64,000 bases of DNA from Clostridia bacterium (GCA_017508405.1 JAFVYY010000020.1:529-64528), one strand, 5' to 3'; positions 33,181-60,602 are shown, numbered from the stretch's first letter. Numbers and translations are program-made. Notes: generated by a model not told the origin, from the sequence alone.

Positions 33181-34143
33181 TCAAATACCGAGAACGGCAG
33201 CACCGAGAATGCCTGCATCGTTACCAAGCTCAGCGATCTTGATCTGTGTTGCTGCGCTTTCGCCGTTTCCGTAGGTTTCCTTTCTTACCTTTTCGCAAAG
33301 GGGCTTCAGAAGATAATCCTTTTCGTTACATACTCCGCCACCGATGGAAAGAACGTTGGGCTGGAAGATATTTATCATTGTTGCAACGCCTGATGCGAGA
33401 TAATCAATGTATTCATCAACTATTTCGGCGCCAACCTTGTCACCCTGCTTCATAGCTGCAAACGCAACTCTTGCATTAACGGCATTGAGATCTCCGTTTA
33501 TCATATCTTCAATAATAGATTTCTCGCCGTTTTCTCTTGCTTTGATAAGGTGCTCCTTTGTCATGTTAACAAGACCTGTTGCGGAGCTGTATGTTTCCCA
33601 ACAGCCCTTTCTTCCGCATGTGCACTGCTTACCACCCTTTTGAATTACAACGTGACCAAGCTCTGCTCCTGCGTGATTGAATCCGGAGTATACCTTGCCG
33701 TCAAGAACGATGCCACCGCCAAGACCTGTACCAAGTGTTATCATTACAGAATATTTTGCGCCTTTGGCTGCGCCTACAATAGCTTCTGCCTTTGCAGCTG
33801 CATTGGCGTCGTTTTCTATATATACCTTTTCAATTCCCAAATATTCCTTTAAAAGGTCGGCGATAGGGAAATTGTTAAAAGGAAGATTGTTTGCATACAC
33901 AACAACTCCCGTATCGGAATCAGCAGTACCGGGTGTAGCAATACCCGCATATGCGAAATCCTTTAAAGTAAGTCCCGCATTTGCAATCAGCTTTTTACAA
34001 AGTTCTGCCATATCCTTGATGATAAGCTTACCGTCTCGATTTGCAAGGGTCGGAACACTACCCTTTGAGATGATCTCATACTTTTCGTTTACGATGCCTG
34101 CGGCGATGTTAGTTCCGCCAAGGTCAATACCCAAATAATACAT
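33181..34143 (-). CDS. glcK: ROK-family glucokinase
   Basis: YYLGIDLGGTNIAAGIV, the Zn motif HVVIQKGGKQCTCGRKGCWETY and IGGGV. Confidence 0.88.
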   Translation of the reverse strand: MYYLGIDLGGTNIAAGIVNEKYEIISKGSVPTLANRDGKLIIKDMAELCKKLIANAGLTLKDFAYAGIATPGTADSDTGVVVYANNLPFNNFPIADLLKEYLGIEKVYIENDANAAAKAEAIVGAAKGAKYSVMITLGTGLGGGIVLDGKVYSGFNHAGAELGHVVIQKGGKQCTCGRKGCWETYSSATGLVNMTKEHLIKARENGEKSIIEDMINGDLNAVNARVAFAAMKQGDKVGAEIVDEYIDYLASGVATMINIFQPNVLSIGGGVCNEKDYLLKPLCEKVRKETYGNGESAATQIKIAELGNDAGILGAAVLGI

Positions 34144-34641: not shown

Positions 34642-34667
34642 ATTACTTGCAAAATGGAGGAATTCTT

Positions 34668-37600
34668 ATGAAAGCAAAAGCAAGAAAAGCGCTGGCGTTA
34701 TTCCTTTGTATCGTTATGCTCGTCGGTACAATGATAACGGCAGTATCCGCTGCTTCCGCTGGTACCAGTGGGAATAAGGGTGGAACGACATCGATTGATG
34801 ACGTTACCGATATCCTTAACGCAATATCCTACTCAAAGTACTATGCAAAGTATGCGAATGTCAAGAAGGGTGAGGGAACGATAGTAATTCCCGCTCTCAA
34901 CTATGACAAGGACAACACTACGGCGGCTGTTACTGAAAAAGACGGCCATTACGGTGTTGACGATGCATTACTCATTCCCGAAGTAGGAAAAGTAAGCTGG
35001 ACCTTCGACGTCCCGTCCAACGCTCTTTACACTATTGAAATCGAGTACTGCCAGAACGACGGCGGTAAGAAAACTTCAATTGAAAGAGCCTTTTATCTTA
35101 ACGGAGAAGTTCCCTTTTCCGGCGCTCGTTCCGTAATTCTTACTAAAACATGGAAGTACGACTACGTTATTGAAAACGGTAAGGAATCATTTAAGCATGA
35201 CGGAAAAGAAGACAGTGATGAAAGAGGAAATGATATTCGTCCCGGTATGTCAGCTGATCCTAAGTGGACAACGTACGCAATTTCAGATGCTAACGGATAT
35301 TACAACGATCCTTTCCAGTTCTATTTCAAGGCGGGAAAGAACACTATAACTCTTGAGGGCTCAAGAGAGTCTGTTGTAATCAAGTCCATTAAGCTCGTTC
35401 CCGCAGAGGACAATATTTCATATGAGGAATACCGTAAGCTTTATACTGATAACGCTAATGGCGTAATCGGTAAAGTAGAGGCTGAGAATCCTGTGAATGT
35501 ATCCCACGTTACCGTATACCCCGTTTATGACAGAACTTCCTGTATCACAAGCGGACTTACAGGTGAACAGTCTGCTAAGGTTACAAAGTACAACACTATA
35601 GGCGGTACACAGTGGCAGAATGTAGGCGAGTGGGTTGAATACGTTGTTGAGGTTCCAAAGGGAGCGGCAGGTTATTACAACATTCCTGTTCGTTATAAGC
35701 AGAACTTGCTCAGCGGTATGTTCGTGTCAAGAAGAGTTTATATTGACGGCTCGGTTCCTTTCGAAGAAGCAAATTACTGTAACTTCAATTTCAGCGAGGA
35801 CTGGGAGGTAAGAAATCTCGGTAACGGCGACACGGATTATCAATTCTATCTTTCTGAGGGCAAGCACGTCATAAGACTTGAGGTTGTTCTCGGCGATATG
35901 GGACAGCAGATAGAGCAGGTTAGTGAATCACTTACAGTAATCAATAACTGCTATCTTGAAATACTCAAGCTTACAGGTAGTACACCTGACGAAGACCGTA
36001 CATACGGCTTCTCAAGAGTAATGCCCGACGTAATTACATCTTTGCTTGAGGAATCAATCAGACTTAAGGGAGTGTACAACTACCTTACCGAGAAGACAGG
36101 ACTTAAGGGTCAGCAGACAGCTACACTTGAGCAGATCTTCAATCTTCTCCACAAGATGGCAAGCGACGAAACTGAAATTGCTAAAAATCTTGAAACACTT
36201 AAGTCTCAGATCGGTAACCTCGGAACATGGGTAAATACAGCTAAAACTCAGCCCCTTCAGGTTGACTATATACAGGTACAGAGTCCCAGTGAGGAAGCAC
36301 CTAAGAGCGAAGGTAACTTCTTCCAGTCACTTTGGTATGAGATTAAGCTTTTCTTTTATAGCTTTATAGTAGATTACAATGCACTTGGCGATTCCGACAA
36401 GGTTGGCGGAGAGCCTGTAGAGGTTTGGATCACAACAGTTGCAAATACAACAGGTCGTGACCAGGCACAGATCGTAAGAACCCTCATTGAAAACGAGTTT
36501 ACACCTAAGACAGGCATAAATGCGAACATCAAGCTTGTAGCTTCCGGAACACTTCTTCCCTCAGTTCTTGCGGGAGTTGGTCCTGACGTATCCTTGTACG
36601 AAGGCAGCACGTCAATTATTGACTATGCTATCCGTGGAGCGGCAATGCCTCTTAACGAATTTGTTAAGCAGGATCCCGATGTTCTCAGCAGATTCCCTGC
36701 AGCAGCTGTTGAGCCTTTGACACTTTACAGCTACACACATGATGAAGACACTGATACATATCTTAAGGAAGAGATCCTTTACGGTCTTCCCGACAAGATG
36801 GACTTTTCAATGATGTTCTATCGCAAGGATATCCTTTCAGACCTCGGTCTTGAAATTCCCAAAACATGGGACGATCTTCTTGCTATGATCCCCGTACTTC
36901 AGTATAACAACATGGAAATCGGTATCCAGAAGGATATTTACACGTTTATTCACCAGAGTAACAATGTTGTATACGATAACGGCGGTATGGAAATCAACTT
37001 TGATAACACAGGCGTTCTTAAGGCATTTACAAAGCTCTGTAATATGTTTACACAGTACTCATTGCCTTATCAGTACGACTTTGCTAACCGTTTCAGAACA
37101 GGTGAAATGCCTATCGGTATTGCATCCTACGGTATGTGTAACCAGCTTGAAGTATTCGCAACGGAAATTTCAGGTCTTTGGGGCTTCGTTCCGCTTCCCG
37201 GTTACGCTTACACCGATGACAATGGTAACATTGTAGAAATCAACAACACTTCCAACGCAGGCGTTTCCGGATGCTTGATGCTTAGAGGATGCGATAATCC
37301 TTCTAATGCTTGGGAGTTTATGAAGTGGTATACAGACAAAGATTATCAGGCTGAATACTCTAACGAAATCGTTGCTCTTATGGGTATTTCCGCAAGACCT
37401 TTGATCGCTAACATTGAAGCTATTTACGAGCTTCCTTGGACAAACGAAGAGGCTGCGAACATAAGCGCACAGATGCAGAATCTTAAGGGCGTTCCCAGCC
37501 ATCCCGGAAGCTATTATCTCCAGAGATATATAGATTTCGCGTTTCTTGCTGCATATAACAACGGAGTGGATCCTGCAGACGCTATGTTGAGCTATGTTAA

Positions 37601-37754
37601 TACAATTAACAAGGAGCTTACAAGAAAGCGTAATGAGTTCAACTACGTTACAATGGACTACATCGAAGAGTTGGGTTATGACACCTTAGAGCAATTCGAG
37701 TGGGCTAACTCAAAGAAGATAACCGTAAAATCCTACAGAGATTATTTGAAATAA
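34668..37754 (+). CDS. Giant extracellular solute-binding protein: signal peptide, two tandem CBM-like beta-sandwich repeats, a helical linker and an SBP family-1-like domain
   Basis: ATG at 34668 with GGAGGA 6 nt upstream; the track start at 34647 is a TTG. The signal peptide is MKAKARKALALFLCIVMLVGTMITAVSA. Internal repeats are visible (FYLNGEVPF vs VYIDGSVPF; FQFYFKAGKNTITLEG vs YQFYLSEGKHVIRLEV). The C-terminal approx. 450 aa (EPVEVWITTVANTTGRD...) resemble CUT1 sugar-binding proteins. Confidence 0.8.
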   Translation: MKAKARKALALFLCIVMLVGTMITAVSAASAGTSGNKGGTTSIDDVTDILNAISYSKYYAKYANVKKGEGTIVIPALNYDKDNTTAAVTEKDGHYGVDDALLIPEVGKVSWTFDVPSNALYTIEIEYCQNDGGKKTSIERAFYLNGEVPFSGARSVILTKTWKYDYVIENGKESFKHDGKEDSDERGNDIRPGMSADPKWTTYAISDANGYYNDPFQFYFKAGKNTITLEGSRESVVIKSIKLVPAEDNISYEEYRKLYTDNANGVIGKVEAENPVNVSHVTVYPVYDRTSCITSGLTGEQSAKVTKYNTIGGTQWQNVGEWVEYVVEVPKGAAGYYNIPVRYKQNLLSGMFVSRRVYIDGSVPFEEANYCNFNFSEDWEVRNLGNGDTDYQFYLSEGKHVIRLEVVLGDMGQQIEQVSESLTVINNCYLEILKLTGSTPDEDRTYGFSRVMPDVITSLLEESIRLKGVYNYLTEKTGLKGQQTATLEQIFNLLHKMASDETEIAKNLETLKSQIGNLGTWVNTAKTQPLQVDYIQVQSPSEEAPKSEGNFFQSLWYEIKLFFYSFIVDYNALGDSDKVGGEPVEVWITTVANTTGRDQAQIVRTLIENEFTPKTGINANIKLVASGTLLPSVLAGVGPDVSLYEGSTSIIDYAIRGAAMPLNEFVKQDPDVLSRFPAAAVEPLTLYSYTHDEDTDTYLKEEILYGLPDKMDFSMMFYRKDILSDLGLEIPKTWDDLLAMIPVLQYNNMEIGIQKDIYTFIHQSNNVVYDNGGMEINFDNTGVLKAFTKLCNMFTQYSLPYQYDFANRFRTGEMPIGIASYGMCNQLEVFATEISGLWGFVPLPGYAYTDDNGNIVEINNTSNAGVSGCLMLRGCDNPSNAWEFMKWYTDKDYQAEYSNEIVALMGISARPLIANIEAIYELPWTNEEAANISAQMQNLKGVPSHPGSYYLQRYIDFAFLAAYNNGVDPADAMLSYVNTINKELTRKRNEFNYVTMDYIEELGYDTLEQFEWANSKKITVKSYRDYLK

Positions 37755-37815: not shown

Positions 37816-38940
37816 ATGGCAAATCAAGATAATAATAAAAAAGCTGTCAACGTACGCAAAATCTCCAAGGATGAATTCAAAAAGGTCTATTTTGAAACGT
37901 CTCTGGAGCCTGTAGCGTTGGCATCAGATCTAAATGTGAATAGTACCGACGCCGCAGTTGTAGCTGACGAGCCCGATACAGCCTCCTCTGCCAATGCAAA
38001 GGCAAAGAAGGTTGTAACAGCTCGTAAGGATATGACTATGGCTCAGTGGACAATTAAGGAAATGAAGAGAAATAAAGTAGGCTATTTTATGGTAGCGCCC
38101 TTTATGCTCGTATTTACTTTGTTTACATTGTTCCCCGTACTACTTTCATTTGCGCTCAGCTTTACATCATTTAATATGCTTGAATTCAAGGCCGATATGT
38201 TCGTTGGTATAAGCAACTATACAAGATTGTTCTTCGACGATGACATATTCCTTCAGGCATGTAAAAACACTCTCGTATTCGCAATGGTTACAGGTCCTGT
38301 TTCTTACATACTCTCATTCCTTGTAGCATGGTTCATTAACGAGCTTGCTCCTAAGATCAGAGCTCTTGTAACTCTTGTATTCTACGCTCCGTCCTTTGGT
38401 GGTAACGCTTACCTCGTATGGCAGACTCTTTTCCATGATGACGCTAACGGTTGGGTAAACGGTACACTCTTGGATCTCGGACTTATCAACGAACCTATAC
38501 TTTGGTTCCATGATGAAAATTATGCTATGACTCTCTGTATCGTAGTTGCTCTGTGGATGTCACTCGGTACATCGTTCCTTTCATTTATCGCAGGTCTTCA
38601 GACCATGGATAAGAGCTTGTTTGAGGCCGCTTCGGTTGACGGTATCAAGAACAGATGGCAGGAGCTTTGGTACATTACGCTTCCTCAGATGAAGCCGCAG
38701 TTGCTCTTCGGTGCGGTTATGGCTATCACAGGCTCATTCGGTTTCGGCGCAGTAGTTACCGCTCTTTGCGGATTCCCGTCAGTTAACTACTCTTGTCACA
38801 CCATTATGCACTGTCTTGACGACTATGGTGGAACAAGATGGGAGGTTGGTTATGCATCTGCTATTGCAACTATCCTCTTCTTTATCATGATTGGCGCAAA
38901 TATGCTGGTACAGAAATTAATTTCGAAGGTAGGACAATAA
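37816..38940 (+). CDS. CUT1 sugar ABC transporter permease (MalF-like), pair 1, with a hydrophilic N-terminal extension of about 75 aa
   Basis: EAA loop EAASVDGIKNRWQELWYITLPQMKP and multiple TM segments. AAGGAG lies 8 nt upstream of 37816. An alternative internal start lies at 38038. Confidence 0.85.
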   Translation: MANQDNNKKAVNVRKISKDEFKKVYFETSLEPVALASDLNVNSTDAAVVADEPDTASSANAKAKKVVTARKDMTMAQWTIKEMKRNKVGYFMVAPFMLVFTLFTLFPVLLSFALSFTSFNMLEFKADMFVGISNYTRLFFDDDIFLQACKNTLVFAMVTGPVSYILSFLVAWFINELAPKIRALVTLVFYAPSFGGNAYLVWQTLFHDDANGWVNGTLLDLGLINEPILWFHDENYAMTLCIVVALWMSLGTSFLSFIAGLQTMDKSLFEAASVDGIKNRWQELWYITLPQMKPQLLFGAVMAITGSFGFGAVVTALCGFPSVNYSCHTIMHCLDDYGGTRWEVGYASAIATILFFIMIGANMLVQKLISKVGQ

Positions 38941-38941
38941 T

Positions 38942-39823
38942 ATGCAAAAAGTGCAAAAAATGAGAATTAGAAATCATCAAGTTGTCCTTAACCGTTCGGT
39001 TGGTGGCGACGCGGGAATCTTTACGTTCCTCGCTATCATGGGCTTCTTTATGTTCCTGCCTATGGTATATGTCATCATGCAGTCACTTAAGCCACTTGAT
39101 GAGTTATTCATCTTCCCCCCAAGATTCTGGGTACAGAAGCCCACATTCGGCAACTTCGGAAGCTTGTTTAAGCTCCTTGGTGAATCCTGGGTACCTTTCT
39201 CCAGATATATTTTCAACACAGTGTTCATTACGGCAGCGGGTGTATTCGGAAACCTTTTCTTCTCCTCACTTGCAGCGTATGCACTTTCTAAGATTCCTTT
39301 CCCCGGAAGAAACGGAATCTTTAAGACCATAAGATCATCCCTTATGTTTACTTCAACAGTTACAGCTATCGCGAACTTCCTTACACTTTCTACATTAGGT
39401 TTGCTTGACAACCACCTTGCAATCATCATTCCTGCATGGGGTTCAACACTTGGTCTCTACCTTATGAAGCAGTTTATGGATTCATCTATTACCGATACAG
39501 TTCTTGAGAGCGCACGTCTTGACGGATGTAGCGAGCTTAAGACATTCTGGGTAATCGCGATGCCTATGGTTAAGCCCGCTTGGCTTACACTTATCATTTA
39601 TTCATTCCAGGGACTTTGGAATGCAGGCGCTTCCGTATACATTTACAGTGAAGAGCTTAAAACACTTAACTACGCAATTGGTCAGATCACATCAGGTGGT
39701 ATTGCTCGTGCAGGCGCATCTGCGGCAGGTACAGTTATTATGATGATTGTTCCTATTCTCGTATTTGTAATTTCACAGAGTAATATCATTGAAACAATGG
39801 GATCCAGTGGTATGAAGGATTAA
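38942..39823 (+). CDS. CUT1 carbohydrate ABC transporter permease (MalG-like), pair 1
   Basis: ESARLDGCSELKTFWVIAMPMVKP. 293 aa. Starts 1 nt after the previous stop. Confidence 0.88.
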   Translation: MQKVQKMRIRNHQVVLNRSVGGDAGIFTFLAIMGFFMFLPMVYVIMQSLKPLDELFIFPPRFWVQKPTFGNFGSLFKLLGESWVPFSRYIFNTVFITAAGVFGNLFFSSLAAYALSKIPFPGRNGIFKTIRSSLMFTSTVTAIANFLTLSTLGLLDNHLAIIIPAWGSTLGLYLMKQFMDSSITDTVLESARLDGCSELKTFWVIAMPMVKPAWLTLIIYSFQGLWNAGASVYIYSEELKTLNYAIGQITSGGIARAGASAAGTVIMMIVPILVFVISQSNIIETMGSSGMKD

Positions 39824-39832
39824 GGAGGATTT

Positions 39833-42004
39833 ATGAAGAAAATAACAAAAATATTAGTATTCGTAATGATGCTCCTCATGGTATTCCCTATGGTAATATC
39901 AGCTATCGTGCCTTACGAATCCTACACATATGATATTGACGGATTTTCAGTACCGTCACCTCACGCATACGTTCCGGACATTCTTGTAGACTCTGCATAT
40001 ATCGGCGAGCTTGCAGGCGGACTTGATGTTCCCCTTGTAAGCCCCACAGACGTTGAGGCAGATGCTGATGGCAACGTATATATTACTGATAACGGCAATA
40101 ACAGAATCGTGGTGCTTAACGATGAATACAGACTTAAGTACATAATCAAGGATTTTGTTAATGCAAGTGGAGTAGATGATACATTTAATAAGCCCTCAAG
40201 CACATTTGTAGTTGATTCAGGTGCTTACAGAGGACTTTACGTATGTGATACAGCTAACTCAAGAATCTTGGTTTTCAATCAGGATAATGGTGAGCTTATT
40301 CGCGAAATCAACAAACCCAAGTCAACACTTCTCGTAGATACAAACTATTCTCCTGTAAGCTGCGTAGTTGATAAATACGGTCGACTCTACGTTGCTGCTA
40401 ACGACAGAACAGAAGGTATCATGGTTATGACCATTGATGGTAAGCTTATTAACTTTATAGGCGCACCTAAGGTAACAGTAACCGCAGCAGAGGCACTTCT
40501 TGCTCTCTTGAGCCCTAAGGCTAAAGAGCTTCAGTCAAATATTGCTACAACATTCGTAAACCTTGATATCGACCAGACATCAAATGAGTTCGTTTACGGT
40601 ACATGTATCTTTAACAAGGAAGAAGAGCAGAATCAGATTGCTGCCATTACATCCAAGGATGGTACATATTCACCTACAAGACTTCTTAACGCTAAGGGTA
40701 AGGATATTATGAAGCGTAACGGCTTCTTCCTTCCTGCCGGTGAGGTTGATATAATTACAAAGGAGCTTCAGTCCTCTACAAGCATTCCCGCAGGACCCTC
40801 ACAGATAAGAGATATTTCAAGCGGTCCTAACGGAACATGGTCAATCATTGATATCAACAGATGTAAGGTATATACATACGATAACGACGGTAACCTTCTT
40901 CACATTTTCGGTGACGTTGGTGACCAGCTCGGTAACCTTACGTTCAAGTTTGCTCAGTCCTTGACATATCAGGGCACAAAGATCTTGGTTCTTGATATTA
41001 ACAAGAATGCGTTTACAGTATACCGCAGAACAGAATACGGTGACCTTCTTGATGAGGCTATAAGCCTTCAGAACTCCAGTGAGTATGATCTTGCTATTGA
41101 AAAGTGGGAAGAGGTACTTGCAAGAAACAACAACTTTGATACAGCGTATGTAGCTATCGGTAAGGCTCTTCACAGAAACGGTAAATATTCAGAGGCTATC
41201 GAATATTTTGAAACAGCATTCGATACAGAAAACTATGCTACCACCTTTAAAGAGGTTCGTAAGACCGTTATGGAGGTATGGTTCGTACCTGTAATCTTCC
41301 TTATCGTAGTATTGTTTATTATCCTCGGCAAGATTTTTGGCTGGGTAGGAAAGGTAAACAAAAATGCAACGTTTAAATCCGGCAGAAGAACTCTTAAGGA
41401 GGAGCTCTGTTACGGTATGCACATTATTTTCCATCCCTTTGACGGTTACTGGGATTTGAAGCATGAGCAGAGAGGTTCAGTAAGAGCGTCACTTATTTAC
41501 GTTGTACTTACTGTGCTTGCATTCTATTACCAGTCTATTGGTACAGGCTTCTACAAGAATCCTCAGGGTGGTTCAAACTCAATCTTTATGACAGCAACAT
41601 CTATTATCGTTCCGCTTCTTCTTTGGGTGATCGGTAACTGGTGCTTCACTACATTGTTCGACGGCGAAGGCAATATGAAGCATATTTTCATGGCGTCTTC
41701 ATACGCATTGTTCCCCGTACCTCTCTTTGTAATTGTTTCTACAATTCTTACAAACTTCTTGGTAGGTGACGAAGCGCAGATCGCTACAATGCTTATAACA
41801 CTCGCATATGTATGGATGGCATTCCTTCTTGTCTTTGGTATGCAGACCATTCATAACTTCTCAACAGGTAAAAACATTGTAATGATACTTTGTACACTTG
41901 TTGGTATGATATTTATTGTATTCATTGCATTGCTGTTTACAACTCTTGCATCTAAGATGATAGGATTTGTTGAAACCATTGTAGATGAAATTTCATTCAG
42001 GTAA
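39833..42004 (+). CDS. Signal peptide + NHL-repeat beta-propeller + TPR-like segment + C-terminal Yip1-like polytopic membrane domain
   Basis: 723 aa. NHL-like repeats are DADGNVYITDNGNNRIVVLN, GLYVCDTANSRILVFN and GRLYVAAND. The TPR-like stretch is EYDLAIEKWEEVLARNNNFDTAYVAIGKALHRNGKYSEAIEYFETAF. Then come a TM segment (VWFVPVIFLIVVLFIILG) and IFHPFDGYWDLKHEQRGS plus about 5 TM segments, which recall bacterial Yip1-family proteins (from memory). Confidence 0.7.
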   Translation: MKKITKILVFVMMLLMVFPMVISAIVPYESYTYDIDGFSVPSPHAYVPDILVDSAYIGELAGGLDVPLVSPTDVEADADGNVYITDNGNNRIVVLNDEYRLKYIIKDFVNASGVDDTFNKPSSTFVVDSGAYRGLYVCDTANSRILVFNQDNGELIREINKPKSTLLVDTNYSPVSCVVDKYGRLYVAANDRTEGIMVMTIDGKLINFIGAPKVTVTAAEALLALLSPKAKELQSNIATTFVNLDIDQTSNEFVYGTCIFNKEEEQNQIAAITSKDGTYSPTRLLNAKGKDIMKRNGFFLPAGEVDIITKELQSSTSIPAGPSQIRDISSGPNGTWSIIDINRCKVYTYDNDGNLLHIFGDVGDQLGNLTFKFAQSLTYQGTKILVLDINKNAFTVYRRTEYGDLLDEAISLQNSSEYDLAIEKWEEVLARNNNFDTAYVAIGKALHRNGKYSEAIEYFETAFDTENYATTFKEVRKTVMEVWFVPVIFLIVVLFIILGKIFGWVGKVNKNATFKSGRRTLKEELCYGMHIIFHPFDGYWDLKHEQRGSVRASLIYVVLTVLAFYYQSIGTGFYKNPQGGSNSIFMTATSIIVPLLLWVIGNWCFTTLFDGEGNMKHIFMASSYALFPVPLFVIVSTILTNFLVGDEAQIATMLITLAYVWMAFLLVFGMQTIHNFSTGKNIVMILCTLVGMIFIVFIALLFTTLASKMIGFVETIVDEISFR

Positions 42005-42018
42005 AGGAGGAAAAGCTA

Positions 42019-44907
42019 ATGAAAAAGAGAATAACAGCAATAATCCTTGCCGTGATTATGATTTTATCCACTCTTGGAACTTTGGTAATATCTGCCGCTG
42101 ATGAAAGCAGTACTACTACAAAAACACTTGCGGTAATTAAAGAAGCTGATGACGCAAGACACAAGAGTGAGCTTGCGAAAATTAAAAAGATGACCGCAAT
42201 CAAAACCTCTTCTACATCTAAGTATCAGTTTTTCTTTGATGAAAAGACCCTCACTGTTGCTATCCAAAATAAGGCAACCGGTGAGATTATGATGACAGAC
42301 AGAGGAACAAAGGACGAATACGGCTCACAGCTCAGAATTGACTACAGACAGTTAGGTGCTACAAATATTTCTACTTATTTTTCATATAACAACTGCGTTA
42401 AGTATGAAAACATTCAGTACGAATATGATATAAGTGGCACAGATACAATTAAGGTAATCTATACCTTGGGTGAGCTTAACCCCGTACCCTGTCTCCCTGA
42501 TACTATCGGTTATAACGAAATGCAGGCTATTCTTAAGGAATTAAGAGAATCAGGATTGTTTACAGACTCGGAAATCAACACATTCTATAAATCCTACAGA
42601 TATGCTTCAGTTACTCTTAAAGAGCCTGATGAAAACGGTGAAAGAAAGCCGGTTTCCGATTCTGTCAACAAAGATGACTTGATTGAAAAATACGGTGACT
42701 ACGGAATCGAAACAGAGGCTATTTACTATAACGTAGTAGGTCAGATTACTAGAAAGAAGACAAATGAAGCAATGCTTAAGGCCATCGGTTATACCGAAGA
42801 GCGTAAGCTTCAGGATTATGCAGTAATCAATTTCGAAGAGGCTACAGCTAACGTAGCGAGAATGACAATTCCCCTTGTTTATAAGATTACCGATACAGGC
42901 TTTACCGCAGAGGTAGATGCCGGAGAAATGAAATATCCCGATGTTGAAACATTTGCTATTGAAAGCCTTTGCATTTTGCCCTACCTTAATGCAGCAGAGG
43001 TTACAATAGACAACTCTGTTCCCAATGTTGAAAAAAAGATTACAGATTCAGGTTATATATTCATTCCTGACGGAAGCGGCGCGCTTGTAAGATTTGAAGA
43101 CGTTGCAAGACAGAGCTCTACAAACGATATTACGTTCAGCCTTTATGGAACTGATAACGCTTTCTATAAGCTTACTCCTAAGAATGAAGAGCAGATGACA
43201 ATGCCTGTATTTGGTATGGTGCTTAACGAGCTTCCTTATAAATCAGGATTCTTTGCAATTATTGAAAGCGGAGATGCGGTTGCATCTATAACATCATCTC
43301 ACAGACGTTTGTCTCACTCCGTATACGCTTCATTCAAGCTTTCTACACAGGACTCCCGTACTATCCCCGGAACATCAACTCGTGCAGAAGGTAAGCTTAA
43401 TATGAAGACAGATGCAATTTTCACCGAAAAGTGTACTGTTAGATATATTATGCTTAGCGATAAAGAGGCTATGAACGTAACCTCAAATGACGTATTTGAT
43501 ACATCTTATATCGGAATGGCAGAGTGCTACAGAGATTATCTTATGGATAATGGCGCTCTTGAAAAAATAACCTCCGTTGATGAAAAGACAAAGCTCTTTG
43601 TTGAAGTTCTCGGATCAATGAAGGTTGAAGAAAAAATTGCTACATTCCCCGTAACAGTTAATAAGCCTCTTACAACCTTTGAGCAGGTTATGATTATGCA
43701 GCAGGAGCTTACAAGCGGTACAGCTGTTATTAACGGCGAAACCGTTAAAGCAGCTAAAGACGGCGTAGGTCCTATTAACTTTATCCTTACCGGCTTTGCA
43801 AACGAGGGACTTTCCTCTAAATATCCCACAAAGATCAAGTGGATCCGTTCCGTAGGAGGAAAGGATGGCTTTAATGAGCTTCTTGCAGATGCTGAGGCAA
43901 AGGGATATGAGGTTTCACCTAACTTTGATTTTGTTTACTCCACATATATTTTTGGATCAGATAATATCAAATACAGAAAATATGGTTCAAAATCCCTTGA
44001 TAACAGATTCTCAATGAAGCTTACATATGACCCCGCTTTACAGATGCTTTCATATATTGGCGGTATTGTAATTTCCGCGGGAGCATATGATTACGCTTAC
44101 GAAAAATTTGCAGATCAGGCAATTAAGTACGATATGAAGAATATCGCAGTACCTACTCTTGGCTCCGATCTTAACTCCAACTTTGATCCTACTGAGGATA
44201 AAGACGGTAATTTGAAGAACTTCCTTTTCAGAACCGACTCATTAAGACTTACACAGCAGCTTCTCGGTAAGCTTTCCGGTAAGGAAGAAAGCAGCACAGA
44301 TTATAAGCTTCTTACAAAGAAGGGTAACGCATTTTCTTATAAGTATGTAGACTACATTCTTGACATTTCACTTGATAGTAGCCGTCGTACTAACGAATCA
44401 GAGGCTGTTCCTTTCTTGGGAATCGTTCTTCACGGCAGCAAGACATTTGCAGGTGAAGCTCTCAATATGGACGGTGATGCTGATTACAGCTTCCTTAAGA
44501 CGCTTGAAAGCGGTGCAAACCTTTACTTCACTTTGGCTTACGATAACGTTGAAAATCTTAAGCTCAATTGGAAATTTGCAAATTACTATTCAGTAGACTA
44601 TGCTCTTTGGTTTGAATATGTTGTAACTAAGTACAACGAGTACAATGCGCTTATGGCATCAAAGCAGACCAGCTACATTACAGAGCATGAATTCATTAAC
44701 ACATCCGAAGGCGGAAGCAGATACAATGTTTACCGTAACGATGAAACTAAGGGCGCTCTTGAAAACTCACGTGTTGTAAGAGTTGAGTACAGTAACGGTG
44801 AAGGCTTCTTCCTTAACTATAACGCAGACTTTGGCGTTAAGGTTGAATATCAGGGCAAAACATATAGCATACCCGCTCTTGGATATGTTACATACACAAG
44901 TAAATAA
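42019..44907 (+). CDS. Large secreted or anchored protein of unknown function (possibly DUF5696-like)
   Basis: 962 aa. N-terminal signal/anchor MKKRITAIILAVIMILSTLGTLVISA. AAAGGAGG RBS. I recognise no catalytic motif. The DUF5696 suggestion rests only on my memory of gene neighbourhoods (large unknown protein + Yip1 + CUT1 permeases). Confidence 0.55.
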   Translation: MKKRITAIILAVIMILSTLGTLVISAADESSTTTKTLAVIKEADDARHKSELAKIKKMTAIKTSSTSKYQFFFDEKTLTVAIQNKATGEIMMTDRGTKDEYGSQLRIDYRQLGATNISTYFSYNNCVKYENIQYEYDISGTDTIKVIYTLGELNPVPCLPDTIGYNEMQAILKELRESGLFTDSEINTFYKSYRYASVTLKEPDENGERKPVSDSVNKDDLIEKYGDYGIETEAIYYNVVGQITRKKTNEAMLKAIGYTEERKLQDYAVINFEEATANVARMTIPLVYKITDTGFTAEVDAGEMKYPDVETFAIESLCILPYLNAAEVTIDNSVPNVEKKITDSGYIFIPDGSGALVRFEDVARQSSTNDITFSLYGTDNAFYKLTPKNEEQMTMPVFGMVLNELPYKSGFFAIIESGDAVASITSSHRRLSHSVYASFKLSTQDSRTIPGTSTRAEGKLNMKTDAIFTEKCTVRYIMLSDKEAMNVTSNDVFDTSYIGMAECYRDYLMDNGALEKITSVDEKTKLFVEVLGSMKVEEKIATFPVTVNKPLTTFEQVMIMQQELTSGTAVINGETVKAAKDGVGPINFILTGFANEGLSSKYPTKIKWIRSVGGKDGFNELLADAEAKGYEVSPNFDFVYSTYIFGSDNIKYRKYGSKSLDNRFSMKLTYDPALQMLSYIGGIVISAGAYDYAYEKFADQAIKYDMKNIAVPTLGSDLNSNFDPTEDKDGNLKNFLFRTDSLRLTQQLLGKLSGKEESSTDYKLLTKKGNAFSYKYVDYILDISLDSSRRTNESEAVPFLGIVLHGSKTFAGEALNMDGDADYSFLKTLESGANLYFTLAYDNVENLKLNWKFANYYSVDYALWFEYVVTKYNEYNALMASKQTSYITEHEFINTSEGGSRYNVYRNDETKGALENSRVVRVEYSNGEGFFLNYNADFGVKVEYQGKTYSIPALGYVTYTSK

Positions 44908-44924: not shown

Positions 44925-45989
44925 ATGGCTAAAAATAAAGATTTTACAACCACAAGTGCTGACGGTACAGTCTTGTATCATATGGCCCCGAAAAAGAAAA
45001 TGAGACTTACTCTTTCAAAGAGAAAGGCTCTTTCCGGATGGCTTCTTGTCCTTCCCTTCGTTATTGGATTGATTTTTGTATATGGTCCCATTCTTTTCTC
45101 CTCGTTACGTGCAGTATTTTATTCCGTAGAGGTTAAGCTTACAGGTATCGAATACTATTTTGTAGGCATTGGAAACATTAAATGGGCGTTTCAGGACGAC
45201 TTGTATTTTGTTGACTCACTTGTAAATGGTTTTAAGAGTCTTCTTATTCAGGTTCCTGCAATCATTATCTTCTCACTCTTTATGGCTATTATACTTAACC
45301 AGAAGATGAGAGGACGTGCAGCTTTCCGTGCAATATTCTTCCTTCCTGTAATTCTTTCAATAGGTATTATTGATACTATTGATACGAATGCTCAGCTTAC
45401 AATGGCTGCTATTACAGGCGGTATTGATGACGGTACAGGTGCACTTACAGAGGGTGCTAACTCCTTCGTTTCAATGATGGACCTTAATAATTTGTTTGCA
45501 AATGTACAGATTGGCGGCGGATTCATGGAAATCGCTATGGGACTTGTTAACGACATATTCAATGTTGTTAGCCGTTCCGGCGTACAGATGCTTATCTTCC
45601 TTTCCGGTCTTCAGTCAATTTCCCCTGCAATTTATGAATCTTGTCAGATAGACGGTGCAAGCGCATGGGAAACATTCTGGAAGGTAACGCTTCCTATGAT
45701 AAGCCCTATGATTCTTGTAAACTCTATTTACACTCTTATTGATGCATTTACCGCATCAAGCAATAAGGTTATTAATCATATCTTCATTAATATTGGAGGT
45801 AACAGTAACCCAATTAACTCAATGTACGAATACGTAGACCCTGCAACCGGTGAAACAATTCACAAGCTCTTCTCAGATAACTCTCTCCGAACAACGGAGA
45901 TGTGGATATACGTTGTATTTATCTCATTGCTTGTAGTTGTTGTGGCATTGCTTATGAAAGCATTCGTATTCTATCAGAAGAGAGATTAA
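44925..45989 (+). CDS. CUT1 sugar ABC transporter permease (MalF-like), pair 2
   Basis: ESCQIDGASAWETFWKVTLPMISP. 354 aa. AAAGGAGG RBS. Confidence 0.85.
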   Translation: MAKNKDFTTTSADGTVLYHMAPKKKMRLTLSKRKALSGWLLVLPFVIGLIFVYGPILFSSLRAVFYSVEVKLTGIEYYFVGIGNIKWAFQDDLYFVDSLVNGFKSLLIQVPAIIIFSLFMAIILNQKMRGRAAFRAIFFLPVILSIGIIDTIDTNAQLTMAAITGGIDDGTGALTEGANSFVSMMDLNNLFANVQIGGGFMEIAMGLVNDIFNVVSRSGVQMLIFLSGLQSISPAIYESCQIDGASAWETFWKVTLPMISPMILVNSIYTLIDAFTASSNKVINHIFINIGGNSNPINSMYEYVDPATGETIHKLFSDNSLRTTEMWIYVVFISLLVVVVALLMKAFVFYQKRD

Positions 45990-46001: not shown

Positions 46002-47096
46002 ATGGACGCACCAAAAATTAAAAAAGAATCAAAAAACAAGATCCGTGTGGACTTTGAAAGAGCTCCTCTTTGGGAAAGAGTCAAGGGAAAATATTTCTCT
46101 ATGAAATTTGTAAAGGATGTTGTTTACAAGATATTCAGATTAGTACTTCTTGTCGGTGTATGTTTTGTAATACTTTATCCGTACATTTCAAAGATTGCAG
46201 ACTCATTCAAGATATTCCCCGACTTTCAGGATGTAACGGTTATCTACATTTCGACTAATCCTACGTTGGAACAGTATAAGTATATTATTACAGAGAATGA
46301 CTATTTCTTAGCGTTGCTTAATACGTTCTTGGTTTCTGCTTCAACCGCATTTGTACAGACTCTCGTTTGTGCGCTTATCGGTTACGGTCTTGCAAAATTC
46401 AAGTTCAGAGGAAGAAATTTACTTTTCGCAATAGTTGTTCTTACTATGATGCTTCCTCAGGATCTTATAAGACTTCCTATGCAGAATATGTTCTGTCGTT
46501 TTGATACAGAGCATCCTATAGGAATACTTATCAATAAGCTGTTTGGAACACAGGTCAGATTCGGTGTTGGTAATAGTGAAACTTGGGTAAAATTCTCAGG
46601 ATTTATTCCTCACTACTTGCTCTCAATAACAGGATTTGGTTTTAGAAACGGTTTGTTTATATTCCTTTTAAGACAGTTCTTTACAGGCGTTCCCGACGAG
46701 CTTGAAGAATCTGCTTATATGGATGGATGTACAGCCTTCAGAACCTTCTTCCAGATTATCATTCCCATTGCTATTCCTATGCTTATTACAGTATTTATCT
46801 TCTCGTTCTCGTGGCAGTGGACAGATGACTTCTACATCAATACATTCTGGACATCAGCTCACTGGACAGGAGATAACTCTATTCCGCTTCTCAGCAGTGG
46901 TAACTTCGTTACTAAATTCCCAAGCCAGCTTACATCTATGTACGGCGGCTCGGATAAGGTTGTTGGTTGGGACGCATATGTTAACGCGGTTAGCGGAACA
47001 TCTACAATTCTTATCGCTTTACCCCTTATTATTGCTTTCATATTCTTGCAGAATAAGATCGTTCAGGGTATTGAACGAAGCGGTATTGTCGGCTAA
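46002..47096 (+). CDS. CUT1 carbohydrate ABC transporter permease (MalG-like), pair 2, with enlarged loops
   Basis: ESAYMDGCTAFRTFFQIIIPIAIP. 364 aa. AAGGAGGGG RBS. Confidence 0.85.
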   Translation: MDAPKIKKESKNKIRVDFERAPLWERVKGKYFSMKFVKDVVYKIFRLVLLVGVCFVILYPYISKIADSFKIFPDFQDVTVIYISTNPTLEQYKYIITENDYFLALLNTFLVSASTAFVQTLVCALIGYGLAKFKFRGRNLLFAIVVLTMMLPQDLIRLPMQNMFCRFDTEHPIGILINKLFGTQVRFGVGNSETWVKFSGFIPHYLLSITGFGFRNGLFIFLLRQFFTGVPDELEESAYMDGCTAFRTFFQIIIPIAIPMLITVFIFSFSWQWTDDFYINTFWTSAHWTGDNSIPLLSSGNFVTKFPSQLTSMYGGSDKVVGWDAYVNAVSGTSTILIALPLIIAFIFLQNKIVQGIERSGIVG

Positions 47097-47275: not shown

Positions 47276-47316
47276 AGAGCAAGAGTAAAAGGAGAAAATC
47301 CTTTTATTCTTGCTCT
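47276..47316. terminator. Long hairpin terminator downstream of asd (minus strand)
   Basis: 18-nt arms at 47276-47293 and 47299-47316 with one mismatch. T-rich sequence follows on both strands. Confidence 0.7.
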
Positions 47317-53861: not shown

Positions 53862-56684
53862 TTATTCTGTACGGAGAGCTATTACGGGATCCTTCTTTGC
53901 TGCGATTCTTGAGGGAATAAGACCGGCAATAAGGGTAAGACCCATACTGATAAGCACGAGAATAATTGCGCCCGTAACGGGAAGCACTGCCTTAAGAGCT
54001 GCCAAGCCTGTCAACGCATAGAGAATTATGTTTATTATGATATTAAGAAGGAGAGTAGCTATAATTCCTATTGCACCTGCTGCAAAGCCCACAATAAGGG
54101 TTTCTGCGTTGAATACTCTTGATATGTCCTTCTTCGATGCTCCGATAGCTCGGAGTATACCGATTTCCTTTGTTCTTTCAAGAACCGAAATATAGGTAAT
54201 AATACCTATCATAATTGAAGAAACCACGAGGGAAATAGCTACAAAAGCGATAAGCACATAGGATATAGCGTTTACGATAGTGGTAACGGAGCTCATAAGA
54301 AGTCCGACTGTATCAGTATAGGTGATTTTGTCCTCGTCAGCAGTCATGGATTCATTGTATTTCTCAATTTCAGCGCTGATAATATCCTTTGCCTCAAAAT
54401 CCTTAGGATAAATAAGAATCGAAGAGGGCTTATCCTTGCTTACAAATCCGATATCGGAGAGAACATCGTCGTAATCACTTGAGCCAACCATAGTATTTAC
54501 AATATTTGCAAGGTTTGTGGGATTTGTCATAGCCTGCATCATAAGAAGACCTGCAAGGGATTTTACACTTACGTCGTCAATCTTTGTAAGCTCTGTGAGA
54601 ACGGCTGTTATTCTTGCCATGTGGGCAACGTCTGAGCCGTTGTATCCGCCGTAAGGAACGTCAATAAGAAGAGAATCCATACCCTCGCCAAGAGTAGTCT
54701 TAATAAGTTCAACAACCTGCTCGTCGGACTTGATATAATTTTCAAGCTCGGGAGATGCTGTGAACAATATATTCTTAATAGATGTTACGTCGTATTCAAA
54801 GCCTGCAAAGGGGAAGCCGGTTACGAGATTTACGTTGGGGCTTGCTTTCTGCGCGTCGATGGTTTCTGCCGTGTTGGAGTTGGTTATCATTTTGTCCATG
54901 AGACCCTTTAAGTAGCCGATAGAGCCTACTGCGCTGGAGCTCAAGGAGTCCTCAGAGGGAGTAACGATACCTACAACCTTAACGGTTTCACAGGAGTCAC
55001 TTGCAAGAATCTGGTTGATTTCATATTCAGAGCGACGAACTATTTTTCCGTCCTCAACCTTGAATTTCATTGAATCGGGGATAACCTTAAATTCGTAGTT
55101 AAGAATCTGCTCGAATGTATAGCTTGTGGGCTCGATTGTAATATCGTTTGAGGGGTCGTTATCGTAAATGGATCTTAAATAGTTCTTAAGCTCCTGTGTA
55201 TCTCTTATACCTAGAGTGTAAAGAGTAAAATCGGAGATAAGAAGGTCTTTGCCAACAATGAGCACTACCTCATTTTCATTTTCCGGGAAGCGACCGCCGT
55301 TTTCAACAAGATTATACTGGGTCTTTATGTGATTCATATCTCCAACGAGTTCAGACCACGCGGAGGAAATAAGAGAGCCTGCCGTGCCTGTGTCGCCGAG
55401 ACCGAGCTCTGCCATAAGCTCATTTATACCGCCGAGATTTTTCTTATAGGTGTATTTTACGTTACCCGCTGTATCAACGCCTTCAATAACCGTATAGGTG
55501 TTAAGTCCTGCTCTATAGCGGTACTTAATATCGATGGAATTATCCTTGAATACGGAATTTTCTTCAATATGCTGCTTAAATGCCGTTAAGTTATTTGACG
55601 TTATTCCCTTAGAAAAGGCATCCATTACGTTAAGCATAACGTCGTTTGAGTAAACCGTATTAGGTTGAGGATTTTCAATTGTCTTTTGCTCCATAAACGA
55701 GCTTAAAAGACTCATTGTATCCATAGTACTTTCGTATATTTCAATAGGATATGAGGACATTGTGTTTTCCTCGACGGAGTTAATATACGCGTTTACGCCG
55801 CTGGAAACTGAAAGAATAAGAGCAATACCGATAATACCTATGCTTCCCGCGAAGGAGGTCAGGAAGGTACGACCCTTCTTTGTCATTAAGTTATTTAAGG
55901 AAAGGAGAAGAGCAGTAAAGAATGACATAGATCTCTTCTTTTTAATCTTTTTAACAGGCTTTTCATTATGAGCATCAGCTTCAGTTACCGCCTGTGAATC
56001 GTAAGGGTTGGAATCGTCCACAACTCTACCGTCAAGAAGACGAATAATTCTGTTGGAGTATTCGTCTGCAAGGTCAGGGTTATGGGTAACCATGATAATA
56101 AGCTTTTCCTTTGAAATCTCCTTAAGAATCTCCATGATCTGTACTGATGTTTCGGAGTCAAGAGCGCCTGTCGGCTCATCTGCAAGGAGAATGTCCGGAT
56201 CATTTACAAGCGCACGGGCAATGGCAACACGCTGCATCTGACCGCCTGACATTTGGTTGGGCTTCTTATGAAGCTGGTCGCCAAGACCAACTCTTTCAAG
56301 CACCTCTCTAGCTCTTTTTCTTCTTTCCTCTTTAGAAACACCGGAGAGGGTAAGAGCAAGCTCTACATTTGAAAGAACGGTCTGGTGGGGGATAAGATTG
56401 TAGCTCTGGAATACGAAGCCGATGGAATGGTTTCTGTAGGTATCCCAGTCCTTATCCTGAAATTCCTTCGTTGATTTGTCGTTTATAATAAGATCGCCAC
56501 TTGTGTATTTGTCAAGACCGCCTATGATGTTAAGAAGGGTGGTTTTTCCGCATCCCGACGGACCGAGAATTGATACAAATTCATTTTCTCTGAATTCTAT
56601 GCTTACGTCTTTAAGCGCGCCTACAACAGTATCGCCCATTACGTAGTTTTTGGTAATGTGTTGTAATTTTAGCAAAATGCTCAC
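53862..56684 (-). CDS. Fused ABC transporter: N-terminal ATPase + MacB/FtsX-type permease with a very large extracytoplasmic domain
   Basis: 940 aa. GPSGCGKTT, LSGGQMQRVAIARAL and LLADEPTGALD, then a TM segment, about 500 aa of soluble sequence, and a C-terminal FtsX-like three-TM bundle (ERTKEIGILRAIGASKKDI). The start is uncertain: the track start at 56684 is a GTG with a weak RBS. Confidence 0.85.
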   Translation of the reverse strand: MSILLKLQHITKNYVMGDTVVGALKDVSIEFRENEFVSILGPSGCGKTTLLNIIGGLDKYTSGDLIINDKSTKEFQDKDWDTYRNHSIGFVFQSYNLIPHQTVLSNVELALTLSGVSKEERRKRAREVLERVGLGDQLHKKPNQMSGGQMQRVAIARALVNDPDILLADEPTGALDSETSVQIMEILKEISKEKLIIMVTHNPDLADEYSNRIIRLLDGRVVDDSNPYDSQAVTEADAHNEKPVKKIKKKRSMSFFTALLLSLNNLMTKKGRTFLTSFAGSIGIIGIALILSVSSGVNAYINSVEENTMSSYPIEIYESTMDTMSLLSSFMEQKTIENPQPNTVYSNDVMLNVMDAFSKGITSNNLTAFKQHIEENSVFKDNSIDIKYRYRAGLNTYTVIEGVDTAGNVKYTYKKNLGGINELMAELGLGDTGTAGSLISSAWSELVGDMNHIKTQYNLVENGGRFPENENEVVLIVGKDLLISDFTLYTLGIRDTQELKNYLRSIYDNDPSNDITIEPTSYTFEQILNYEFKVIPDSMKFKVEDGKIVRRSEYEINQILASDSCETVKVVGIVTPSEDSLSSSAVGSIGYLKGLMDKMITNSNTAETIDAQKASPNVNLVTGFPFAGFEYDVTSIKNILFTASPELENYIKSDEQVVELIKTTLGEGMDSLLIDVPYGGYNGSDVAHMARITAVLTELTKIDDVSVKSLAGLLMMQAMTNPTNLANIVNTMVGSSDYDDVLSDIGFVSKDKPSSILIYPKDFEAKDIISAEIEKYNESMTADEDKITYTDTVGLLMSSVTTIVNAISYVLIAFVAISLVVSSIMIGIITYISVLERTKEIGILRAIGASKKDISRVFNAETLIVGFAAGAIGIIATLLLNIIINIILYALTGLAALKAVLPVTGAIILVLISMGLTLIAGLIPSRIAAKKDPVIALRTE

Positions 56685-60440: not shown

Positions 60441-60602
60441 AATATCCGACTCGGTCGACTTCATCCGTGGCAGATTTCATTTTATAGCTGTACATATATT
60501 GGAAATTGTGATAAAATATTTTTTGAGATTTTAATTAACCGATTGATTTTTTCTTTCACTATAATGGCAGAAGCTTCTAAAAACCGAAAGGGAGGTGAGC
60601 AA

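Follow-up and report, generated by a model that had tools for sequence, protein, structure and literature searches.

The window analyzed here, i.e., a stretch of 64,000 nucleotides from a Clostridia bacterium (GCA_017508405.1, JAFVYY010000020.1:529-64528), contains a cassette of seven co-directional and tightly spaced genes, the fifth of which (referred to as gene 5) encodes a protein with a predicted signal peptide, a DUF5696 domain and the fold of a carbohydrate-active enzyme. An initial annotation, made from the sequence of the window, had singled out this gene as the best candidate for an extracellular glycan-processing enzyme or scaffold at the centre of a transport locus, and it is this proposal that was followed up computationally. 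The cassette, together with the ribosome-binding site and signal peptide of gene 5, is laid out as follows (positions counted from the first nucleotide of the window):

34647..37754, + strand: gene 1, giant solute-binding protein, 1035 aa as listed (SBP_bac_1 at residues 609-902, E 1e-19)
37816..38940, + strand: gene 2, permease P1 (MalF/UgpA-like), 374 aa (BPD_transp_1; NCBIfam UgpA/MalF-like; EAA loop FEAASVDG)
38942..39823, + strand: gene 3, permease P2 (MalG/UgpE-like), 293 aa (BPD_transp_1; NCBIfam UgpE/MalG-like; EAA loop ESARLDG at 189)
39833..42004, + strand: gene 4, NHL-TPR-Yip1 membrane protein, 723 aa (Yip1 E 1.5e-17 at residues 530-699; NHL E 1.4e-8; TPR E 8e-7)
42005..42010, + strand: ribosome-binding site AGGAGG of gene 5, read from the sequence, 8 nt upstream of the ATG
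42019..44907, + strand: gene 5, DUF5696 protein, 962 aa from an ATG start, three-domain fold resembling GH129/GH101
42019..42096, + strand: signal peptide of gene 5, residues 1-26, MKKRITAIILAVIMILSTLGTLVISA, with the predicted site ISA|AD for its putative cleavage
44925..45989, + strand: gene 6, permease P3 (MalF/UgpA-like), 354 aa (BPD_transp_1; NCBIfam; EAA loop ESCQIDG at 238)
46002..47096, + strand: gene 7, permease P4 (MalG/UgpE-like), 364 aa (BPD_transp_1; NCBIfam; EAA loop ESAYMDG at 236)

The 962-aa open reading frame (ORF) of gene 5 is real and starts with exactly the N-terminus that the initial annotation had quoted. Its ATG is located 14 nt from the stop codon of the upstream gene and its end 17 nt from the next gene, and the AGGAGG sequence in front of it bears out the strong ribosome-binding site claimed earlier. 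The N-terminus consists of a KKR n-region, a hydrophobic core of ~20 residues and the cleavage site, i.e., a predicted Sec signal peptide, in support of the export that had been proposed; an equivalent signal peptide is present in all gene 5 homologues inspected, and in the operon's two other large proteins the signals end in VSA and ISA. No tandem repeats were found in gene 5, and the GC content is even across the locus (0.38-0.44), in agreement with the ordinary, non-repetitive composition noted before. The position in the middle of a transport locus was likewise correctly seen, with the binding protein and two permeases encoded upstream and two permeases downstream. The product has an identical counterpart in the databases, deposited as 'hypothetical protein' from a Clostridia metagenome-assembled genome (MAG).

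The sole significant Pfam match of gene 5 is DUF5696 (PF18952; 357.5 bits, E 1.9e-106, residues 275-895 against profile positions 18-578 of 612), which places the protein well inside this family as judged by its curated gathering threshold of 25.6 bits. Because it is the only significant match, the DUF5696 label that the initial annotation had tentatively given was right. Its remark that no enzyme motif can be recognized also holds, since a search of NCBIfam and a phmmer search of PDB sequences with gene 5 both came back empty; moreover, the Pfam models for the glycoside hydrolase (GH) families GH129 (PF11308) and GH101 (PF12905) do not match gene 5 even at E 10. The DUF5696 family amounts to 5,622 clusters at 50% identity. 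Many of its members are 1,800-2,500 aa long, having over 1,000 additional residues in which Pfam recognizes no domain (P0249, P0300, P0312, P0331 and others), and in some the match to the profile is split into two or three stretches. When four very long members were scanned with Pfam, no extra domains hinting at a substrate were revealed.

An AlphaFold2 model of gene 5, built from an alignment of 60 homologues (referred to as A1), reached a predicted local distance difference test (pLDDT) score of 86.9 and a predicted template modelling (pTM) score of 0.85. It starts with a helix at residues 2-26 and a low-confidence linker, after which its secondary structure delimits three domains:

42106..43458, + strand: N-terminal beta-sandwich (referred to as N-domain), residues ~30-480, with a helical insert at ~165-275
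43507..44673, + strand: (beta/alpha)8 barrel, residues ~497-885
44674..44904, + strand: C-terminal beta-sandwich, residues 886-962 (model strands at 887-960)

This succession of beta-sandwich, barrel and beta-sandwich is the three-domain architecture of GH129. The best Foldseek match in the PDB was the 'GH129-like' DagB (ZGAL_3152) of Zobellia galactanivorans (5opq/8rzk; E 2e-25; template modelling (TM) score by target 0.66-0.68), an exo-alpha-1,3-(3,6-anhydro)-D-galactosidase that shares the domain order of gene 5, i.e., an N-terminal beta-sandwich, a TIM barrel and, at the C-terminus, an immunoglobulin-like domain (PMC5698469). The second match was NagBb, an alpha-N-acetylgalactosaminidase of GH129 from Bifidobacterium bifidum (5wzn/5wzr; best E 4e-23; TM by target 0.70-0.72), and a third tier was formed by GH101 (E 1e-14 to 1e-11), followed by GH36, GH31 and GH13. 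The GH101 enzymes (EngBF, 2zxq; SpGH101, 5a55) differ from gene 5 in their accessory domains and are a much weaker structural match (TM 0.28-0.38) as well as, again, no Pfam match; in Gram-positive gut bacteria they act outside the cell, and their disaccharide product is taken up by an ABC (ATP-binding cassette) importer (PMC8106489). The structural search for a TIM-barrel core that the initial annotation had suggested thus uncovered a carbohydrate-enzyme fold, and none of the contrary evidence that it had named was encountered, with no match to a non-carbohydrate family turning up.

Homology between gene 5 and GH129 was detected by profile-profile comparison only, direct sequence comparison being non-significant; the top PDB sequence match of the family profile was indeed NagBb, at a non-significant E of 0.36, with a sensible alignment over beta1-beta2 and the beta7 region. 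A 68-aa NagBb fragment used as query gave gene fragments only, and the GH129 proxy was rebuilt from a frameshifted contig and then from full-length relatives, yielding a set of NagBb-like Lachnospiraceae proteins (referred to as A2) whose identity with NagBb was confirmed at E 1e-296. The residue numbers of NagBb were verified with the motifs 'AYLD' (Asp435), 'SSEEV' (Glu478 being its first Glu) and 'MWAGG' (Trp398). Comparison of A1 with A2 via hhalign gave a probability of 93.9% (E 1.5e-7) over residues 394-630, i.e., from the end of the N-domain, where residues 394-480 align with the GH129 N-domain, through strand beta3; barrel against barrel, the probability was 96.7% (E 4.8e-10). By both its fold and its remote homology, the gene 5 product, which is predicted to be exported, belongs to the GH129/GH101 fold superfamily as a remote member. 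It differs from either reference enzyme. NagBb is cytoplasmic and ~630 aa long, whereas the 962-aa gene 5 product is predicted to be exported. DagB is a periplasmic enzyme from the carrageenan locus of a marine member of the Bacteroidota, whereas gene 5 belongs to an ABC cassette of Clostridia; the two share ~11% identity, show no significant direct sequence match and differ by ~270 residues in length, gene 5 being the longer. An AlphaFold2 model of a GH129-like protein was discarded (shallow alignment, pLDDT 56).

The Pfam DUF5696 model spans both kinds of protein, because true GH129-type proteins pass its threshold. NagBb-like Lachnospiraceae proteins simultaneously exceed the gathering thresholds for DUF5696 (88 bits), GH101, GH129 and DUF6259, they score higher on DUF5696 than on GH129, and the NCBI name for true GH129-type enzymes is 'DUF5696 domain-containing protein'. 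The label consequently conflates at least two very different kinds of protein, which is relevant to annotators. P0129-P0247 (Lachnospiraceae, ~630 aa) are such GH129 enzymes of the NagBb type, in which the catalytic Asp and Glu are both preserved, and one NagBb-type GH129 gene (L087:4075-5970) adjoins an AraC-type regulator.

With regard to function, we tentatively read gene 5 as a glycan-engaging ectoprotein of a two-channel ABC importer, namely as an enzyme with a non-canonical catalytic set, a reading that comes close to an even chance while remaining short of it. Of the earlier claim of a glycan-processing enzyme or scaffold, the export signal and the carbohydrate-enzyme fold speak in favour and the lack of a canonical acid pair (see below) speaks against, so that the claim is narrowed rather than settled. 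Conservation was followed in 84 cassette orthologues translated from genome loci and in 145 representatives, each from a separate 50%-identity cluster. Asp351, Asp445, Arg738, Asn770, His805, Asn816 and Glu830 are invariant in both sets, and Asp379, Ser788, Pro798 and Lys848 are invariant in the 84 orthologues and in all but one of the 145 representatives, while Tyr346, Tyr376, Tyr670, Ser720, Asn843, His890 and Asn933 are very highly conserved. The strictly invariant acids are Asp351 and Asp445, both in the N-domain, and Glu830. As judged from conservation together with the secondary structure of the model, the conserved polar residues of the barrel fall in the loops that follow its strands in sequence. 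Glu830 was dropped as a catalytic candidate, given its place at the C-terminal end of the helix before strand beta8; in the model, it probably lies on the non-catalytic face of the barrel. The strict retention of ~20 polar residues over two domains among the 145 representatives is enzyme-like and favors an enzymatic role. The same role is favored because the aromatic sugar platform of GH129 is retained: Trp398, the stacking platform for the -1 sugar in NagBb (PMC8106489), corresponds to Tyr670 in all three alignments (see below), a position that holds Tyr in 138, Trp in 4 and Phe in 2 of the 145 representatives.

Further support for an enzymatic role comes from the N-domain. In DagB, a segment of this domain reaches into the active site of the partner monomer, where it provides the catalytic Asp202 and the contacts Cys198, Lys208 and Asn218 (PMC5698469). 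This segment aligns convincingly with the gene 5 family ('GYIFIPDGSGALVRFED' vs. 'SYIF-PMNGGRFCKWDD') in the region of the Tyr-x-Phe-x-Pro-Asp-Gly-Ser-Gly loop, so that residues 345-377 of gene 5 face the stretch bearing Asp202, Cys198 and Lys208, with Asn218 falling near residue 390. The residue aligned with Asp202 itself is Asp361, where just 74% of the sequences have an acid. The segment does contain the invariant Asp351 and the near-invariant Tyr376, and ends in a Tyr376-Gly-x-Asp379 motif whose Asp379 lies in an insertion relative to DagB. Because of this alignment, it is plausible from the sequences that the invariant N-domain acids line the pocket, and the match of Asp351 and Tyr376 to a segment feeding the DagB active site is one more reason to favor catalysis. 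DagB itself does not keep the acid/base of NagBb and is nevertheless active (PMC5698469), which favors catalysis in the gene 5 family as well. Lastly, the operon would otherwise be devoid of depolymerizing activity, and the recurrence of Asn721 in orthologues that are otherwise intact (see below) is counted in favor of this reading as well. The sites under discussion are located as follows:

43066..43080, + strand: loop Pro350-Asp351-Gly352-Ser353-Gly354; Asp351, Gly352 and Gly354 invariant (Asp351 in 145/145 and 84/84)
44158..44187, + strand: loop after strand beta4, L714-G-S-D717-L-N-S720-N721-F-D723, resembling the DagB nucleophile motif L-E-A-D483-I-T-D486
44179..44181, + strand: codon 721, AAC (Asn); Asp in 82/84 and 135/145 relatives, best candidate for the nucleophile position
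44326..44328, + strand: codon 770, Asn; Asn in 145/145, aligned with NagBb Glu478

A number of observations weigh against the reading of gene 5 as an importer-associated enzyme, most of them at the positions where NagBb and DagB carry their catalytic residues. No carboxylate is invariant in the strand-following loops of the barrel among the 84 and 145 sequences, the frequencies in the latter set being 93% for Asp721, 93% for Glu529, 90% for Asp661 and 70% for Asp/Glu767. The paired acidic residues that the initial annotation had expected are absent from the canonical positions. When NagBb is mapped by agreement of hhalign, MAFFT L-INS-i and MAFFT E-INS-i, its acid/base Glu478 falls on Gly769/Asn770, the latter invariant, the Asp of its 'LDGW' motif (altered in the NagBb quadruple mutant) on Thr591, and Asp521 of its 'HD' motif on Gly806; the best nucleophile candidate is Asn721 in gene 5. 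The nucleophile Asp435 falls on Ala710 (Ser or Ala in every family member) in a register that is unreliable at the residue level around strand beta4. Indeed, the same type of alignment puts Asp435 on a DagB Gly, 7 residues upstream of Asp486, i.e., of the residue that the DagB authors equated with Asp435 and showed to be essential (PMC5698469). Since DagB's proven nucleophile is misplaced in this way, Ala710 is an unsafe counterpart and was abandoned as a firm nucleophile position. Alignment of the 84 orthologues with a small DagB family assembled from marine metagenomes pairs 721 with Asp483, 724 with Asp486, Arg738 with Arg493, 767 with Glu517 and His805 with His556, at a probability of just 47% (E 2e-4). 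At its best matches to the DagB nucleophile region and to Glu517, the gene 5 product has Asn721 and Lys767. At the level of the operon, finally, an ABC ATPase is absent from the cassette in every locus, an ATPase of the MsmK/MalK type was not found among the window ORFs scanned, and neither a regulator nor a cytoplasmic glycosidase is linked to the cassette, be it inside it or in its flanks. Other NagBb positions do have conserved counterparts, with Gln403 (402 in P0129) aligning with the conserved Gln675, His520 of the 'HD' motif (519 in P0129) with His805, and Asn545 (544 in P0129) with the conserved position Asn831, which is Ser in the gene 5 product.

Much of this can also be understood if gene 5 is a non-catalytic pseudo-glycosidase, serving as a glycan receptor or adaptor, as a docking partner of P3/P4 or as a structural subunit of the transporter. 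This main rival explanation, while we would not call it probable, is only slightly less likely than the preferred reading. It would account for the invariant Asn770 at the canonical acid/base position, and for the loss of the residues altered in the NagBb quadruple mutant (the LDGW Asp and the HDQY His). It would likewise account for the Asn721 found here and in ~7% of the representatives, whose proteins are otherwise intact, with 2 of the 145 lacking an acid at both 717 and 721, and for position 767, the match to DagB Glu517, being acidic in only 70% of them. The retained Tyr670 platform would suit binding. Moreover, the gene order Yip1-DUF5696-P3-P4 mirrors SBP-P1-P2 in 55/55 evaluable loci, SBP being the solute-binding protein, and it is because DUF5696 occupies the gene position usual for a solute-binding protein that docking to P3/P4 comes into consideration. 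An analogy, made without any claim of homology, is offered by the SLC3 heavy chains 4F2hc and rBAT, i.e., GH13-like ectodomains that act as ancillary subunits of eukaryotic heteromeric amino-acid transporters, the 4F2hc ectodomain being devoid of catalytic residues. They too are glycosidase-fold ectodomains serving as transporter subunits, but they are eukaryotic and belong to another glycosidase clan and another transporter class. On the other side, ~20 invariant polar residues over two domains exceed what is usual for binding proteins, and the cassette already has a binder with modules resembling carbohydrate-binding modules (CBM) as well as an NHL propeller, so that a further binder would leave the operon without depolymerizing activity. 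DagB demonstrates that a lost canonical residue need not mean inactivity, and catalytic residues are known to have been relocated within GH97.

The loop after strand beta4 raises another alternative, namely that the family consists of canonical DagB-type retaining alpha-glycosidases with Asp721 as nucleophile, of which the present orthologue is a naturally inactivated or sequencing variant. The sequence L-G-S-D-L-N-S-D721 of the relatives resembles L-E-A-D-I-T-D486 of DagB, Asp occupies position 721 in 82/84 and 135/145 sequences, and Arg738 aligns with DagB Arg493 at a shared 'R-E-x-x-K' helix start. A single G-to-A change would convert GAC into the observed AAC, and the corresponding D486N substitution was used to trap the Michaelis complex of DagB (entry 8rzk). 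Still, we consider this alternative unlikely. Asn721 recurs in scattered lineages that seem unrelated and independent, and that keep all other invariants and an intact cassette, which is unexpected for an essential nucleophile. The family has no conserved acid/base partner, and the loop alignment is ambiguous, with hhalign pairing 721 with Asp483 and 724 with Asp486. Unlike in DagB, where conservation of Asp202, Asp486 and Glu517 is strict, these residues have no invariant counterparts in the gene 5 family. The neighboring Asp717 was dismissed as nucleophile, since only 51-73% of the relatives have Asp there; Ser720 is invariant in the 84 orthologues and is Ser in 137 and Thr in 8 of the 145 representatives. 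With Asn at 721 and Lys at 767, where 70% of the representatives have Asp/Glu, the gene 5 product lacks the two best catalytic candidates. Because Asn721 occurs in otherwise intact orthologues, the sequences suggest that residue 721 is not the essential one and that the gene 5 product may be as competent as its relatives. Under the preferred reading, the catalytic set would instead be drawn from Asp351, Asp379 and Asp445 of the N-domain, together with Arg738, Asn770, His805, Asn816 and Lys848 of the barrel.

As to the other genes of the cassette, gene 1 likely starts at the Met of codon 8; the signal peptide that it encodes lacks a lipobox, an uncommon trait among Gram-positive binding proteins. 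Its N-terminal ~600 residues have no Pfam match and include two CBM6/35-like modules that resemble each other weakly (internal repeat E 0.001), a faint CBM_35 match being found on the orthologue in L002; the nearest solved binding protein is Lin1841 (E 3e-6). Gene 4 encodes a signal peptide, an extracellular NHL beta-propeller with PDB matches of the PknD type, TPR repeats and a C-terminal multi-span Yip1 domain, with hydrophobic segments at 484-700. Among the permeases, P1 has a 90-residue cytoplasmic N-terminal extension, and P4 has enlarged predicted outer loops according to the spacing of its hydrophobic segments. PADLOC anti-phage defence models matched neither the DUF5696 and Yip1 proteins nor the binding proteins.

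The combination of an SBP_bac_1 protein with MalF/UgpA- and MalG/UgpE-like permeases bearing EAA loops likens the cassette to CUT1 importers such as MalEFGK2 and UgpABCE. It differs from these in having two complete permease pairs for one binding protein, in the size (~1000 aa), CBM-like modules and missing lipobox of this protein, in the absence of an ATPase gene from the operon and the scanned window ORFs, and in the two extra large ectoproteins encoded between the permease pairs. A Yip1-domain membrane protein encoded with an ABC transporter is also known from Bacillus, where the Yip1-family protein YknW is an accessory subunit of the transporter YknWXYZ (PMC4887032). That system differs in that YknYZ is a MacB-type peptide-toxin exporter and not an importer, and in that YknW has no NHL or TPR ectodomains.

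All seven genes were present, in the same order, in 55/55 loci with enough flanking sequence, while the flanks of the cassette differ between lineages. Median identity to the window is 66-71% for P1/P2 and 44-47% for P3, P4, the binding protein and the Yip1 protein (~47% for P3/P4), with DUF5696 at ~30-35% for most orthologues. The differing rates of P1/P2 and P3/P4 suggest, at the sequence level, that the two translocators may have different partners or roles. A genome scan found a relative in at least 549 species-level genomes, and nearly all of the 80 best loci belong to MAGs of Clostridia, whose sources are digesters and the guts of ruminants, birds and humans. One complete cassette (L048, contig JAGARL010000319.1) is on a contig binned as the archaeon Methanocorpusculum sp.; this assignment is most likely a binning error, because the sequence resembles the Clostridia loci. 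The only recurrent neighbor of the cassette is a divergent ROK kinase gene, present upstream in 34/65 loci with enough upstream sequence. In the window, the cassette is bordered by two further features:

33181..34143, - strand: ROK-family sugar kinase, 320 aa (Pfam ROK E 1e-61), divergent from the cassette
47276..47316, + strand: terminator-like hairpin of 18 pairs with a T-rich tail, after the last cassette gene

The hairpin is called by its position and length, because promoter and terminator scans of the window yielded site counts not above shuffled expectation.

These components can be arranged into a working model, in which catalysis, the substrate, the tethering via Yip1 and a division of labor between the permease pairs are what we infer. 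The binding protein and the DUF5696 protein would be secreted, and the Yip1-anchored protein would keep both at the membrane through its TPR and NHL ectodomains, a role for which YknW is the sole precedent (PMC4887032). The barrel pocket of the DUF5696 protein would then engage an extracellular glycan and cleave or trim it, and the products would enter via the two ABC translocators, powered by a shared MsmK-type ATPase encoded elsewhere. Imported sugar might subsequently be phosphorylated by the neighboring ROK kinase. Sharing of an ATPase is general knowledge for CUT1 systems of Firmicutes and is assumed for the present cassette.

Within the cassette, DUF5696 alone is glycosidase-like, and neither a regulator nor a recognized glycosidase family recurs in the cassette or its flanks, so that the locus does not classify as a Gram-positive polysaccharide utilization locus. 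The neighboring genes are of the housekeeping type, i.e., recG, asd, aspartokinase, hom and thrC in the window, and nifS/nifU or mnmA elsewhere. This setting might indicate that the cassette remodels or recycles the cell's own envelope polymer, with DUF5696 acting on it, rather than foraging on dietary or host glycans. The absence of an adjacent regulator or cytoplasmic glycosidase and the retention of the cassette in so many species-level genomes would fit such a role, and the invariant Arg738 and His805 with the near-invariant Lys848 could bind an anionic group. It is nonetheless very unlikely in our view, since the permeases are of CUT1 sugar-importer types, the binding protein bears CBM-like modules, the folds nearest to that of gene 5 belong to exo- and endo-glycosidases that act on mucin and algal glycans, and no envelope-synthesis genes were found linked to the cassette.

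The other window ORFs that were scanned have ordinary housekeeping or single-gene functions; the exceptions are a gene of the GH127 type, a fused ABC/FtsX transporter and three uncharacterized proteins. The first is a GH127-type beta-L-arabinofuranosidase-like gene at 294-2099 (Pfam E 2e-97), ~32 kb upstream of the cassette and with no evident link to it; GH127 and GH129-like enzymes work together in the Zobellia carrageenan locus. A 940-aa protein encoded at 53862-56684 (- strand) fuses an ABC ATPase with an FtsX-like permease, i.e., MacB/FtsX-type in one polypeptide. Further ORFs encode a DUF5685 protein (5098-5970, E 8e-75), a DUF1846 protein (29362-30846, E 6e-182) and a 359-aa product without a Pfam match at E 1e-5 (18731-19810, - strand). 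The 538-aa product of 60543-62159 has sigma-70 region 4 near its N-terminus as its sole recognized part; it might be a sigma factor joined to a long C-terminal region without a recognized domain.

The Pfam family, the superfamily fold and the presence of the protein in databases as hypothetical are already known. Literature searches on DUF5696 and PF18952, and on Yip1 together with sugar transport, found nothing, and three points appear to be new: the connection of cassette-type DUF5696 with GH129, the changes at the catalytic positions, and the constant arrangement of seven genes that combines two permease pairs with a Yip1-NHL-TPR protein. Taken at its broadest, the cassette might be an undescribed glycan capture-and-import machine of Gram-positive gut anaerobes, in which a glycosidase-derived ectoprotein without the canonical Asp/Glu pair, a Yip1-anchored NHL-TPR scaffold, a CBM-bearing binder and two ABC translocators form one assembly, and in which DUF5696 is either a new glycoside-hydrolase family with catalytic residues in its N-domain or a bacterial glycosidase-fold transporter subunit; in this full form, the proposal is rather doubtful. 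Should gene 5 be an enzyme, the glycosidase family that it represents would be new and its catalytic arrangement unusual, in gut bacteria that are abundant and mostly uncultured. Should it be a binding subunit, an ABC importer would have co-opted a glycosidase fold. In both cases, the constant layout of the seven genes is a concrete and testable unit for carbohydrate acquisition by the organisms that carry it.

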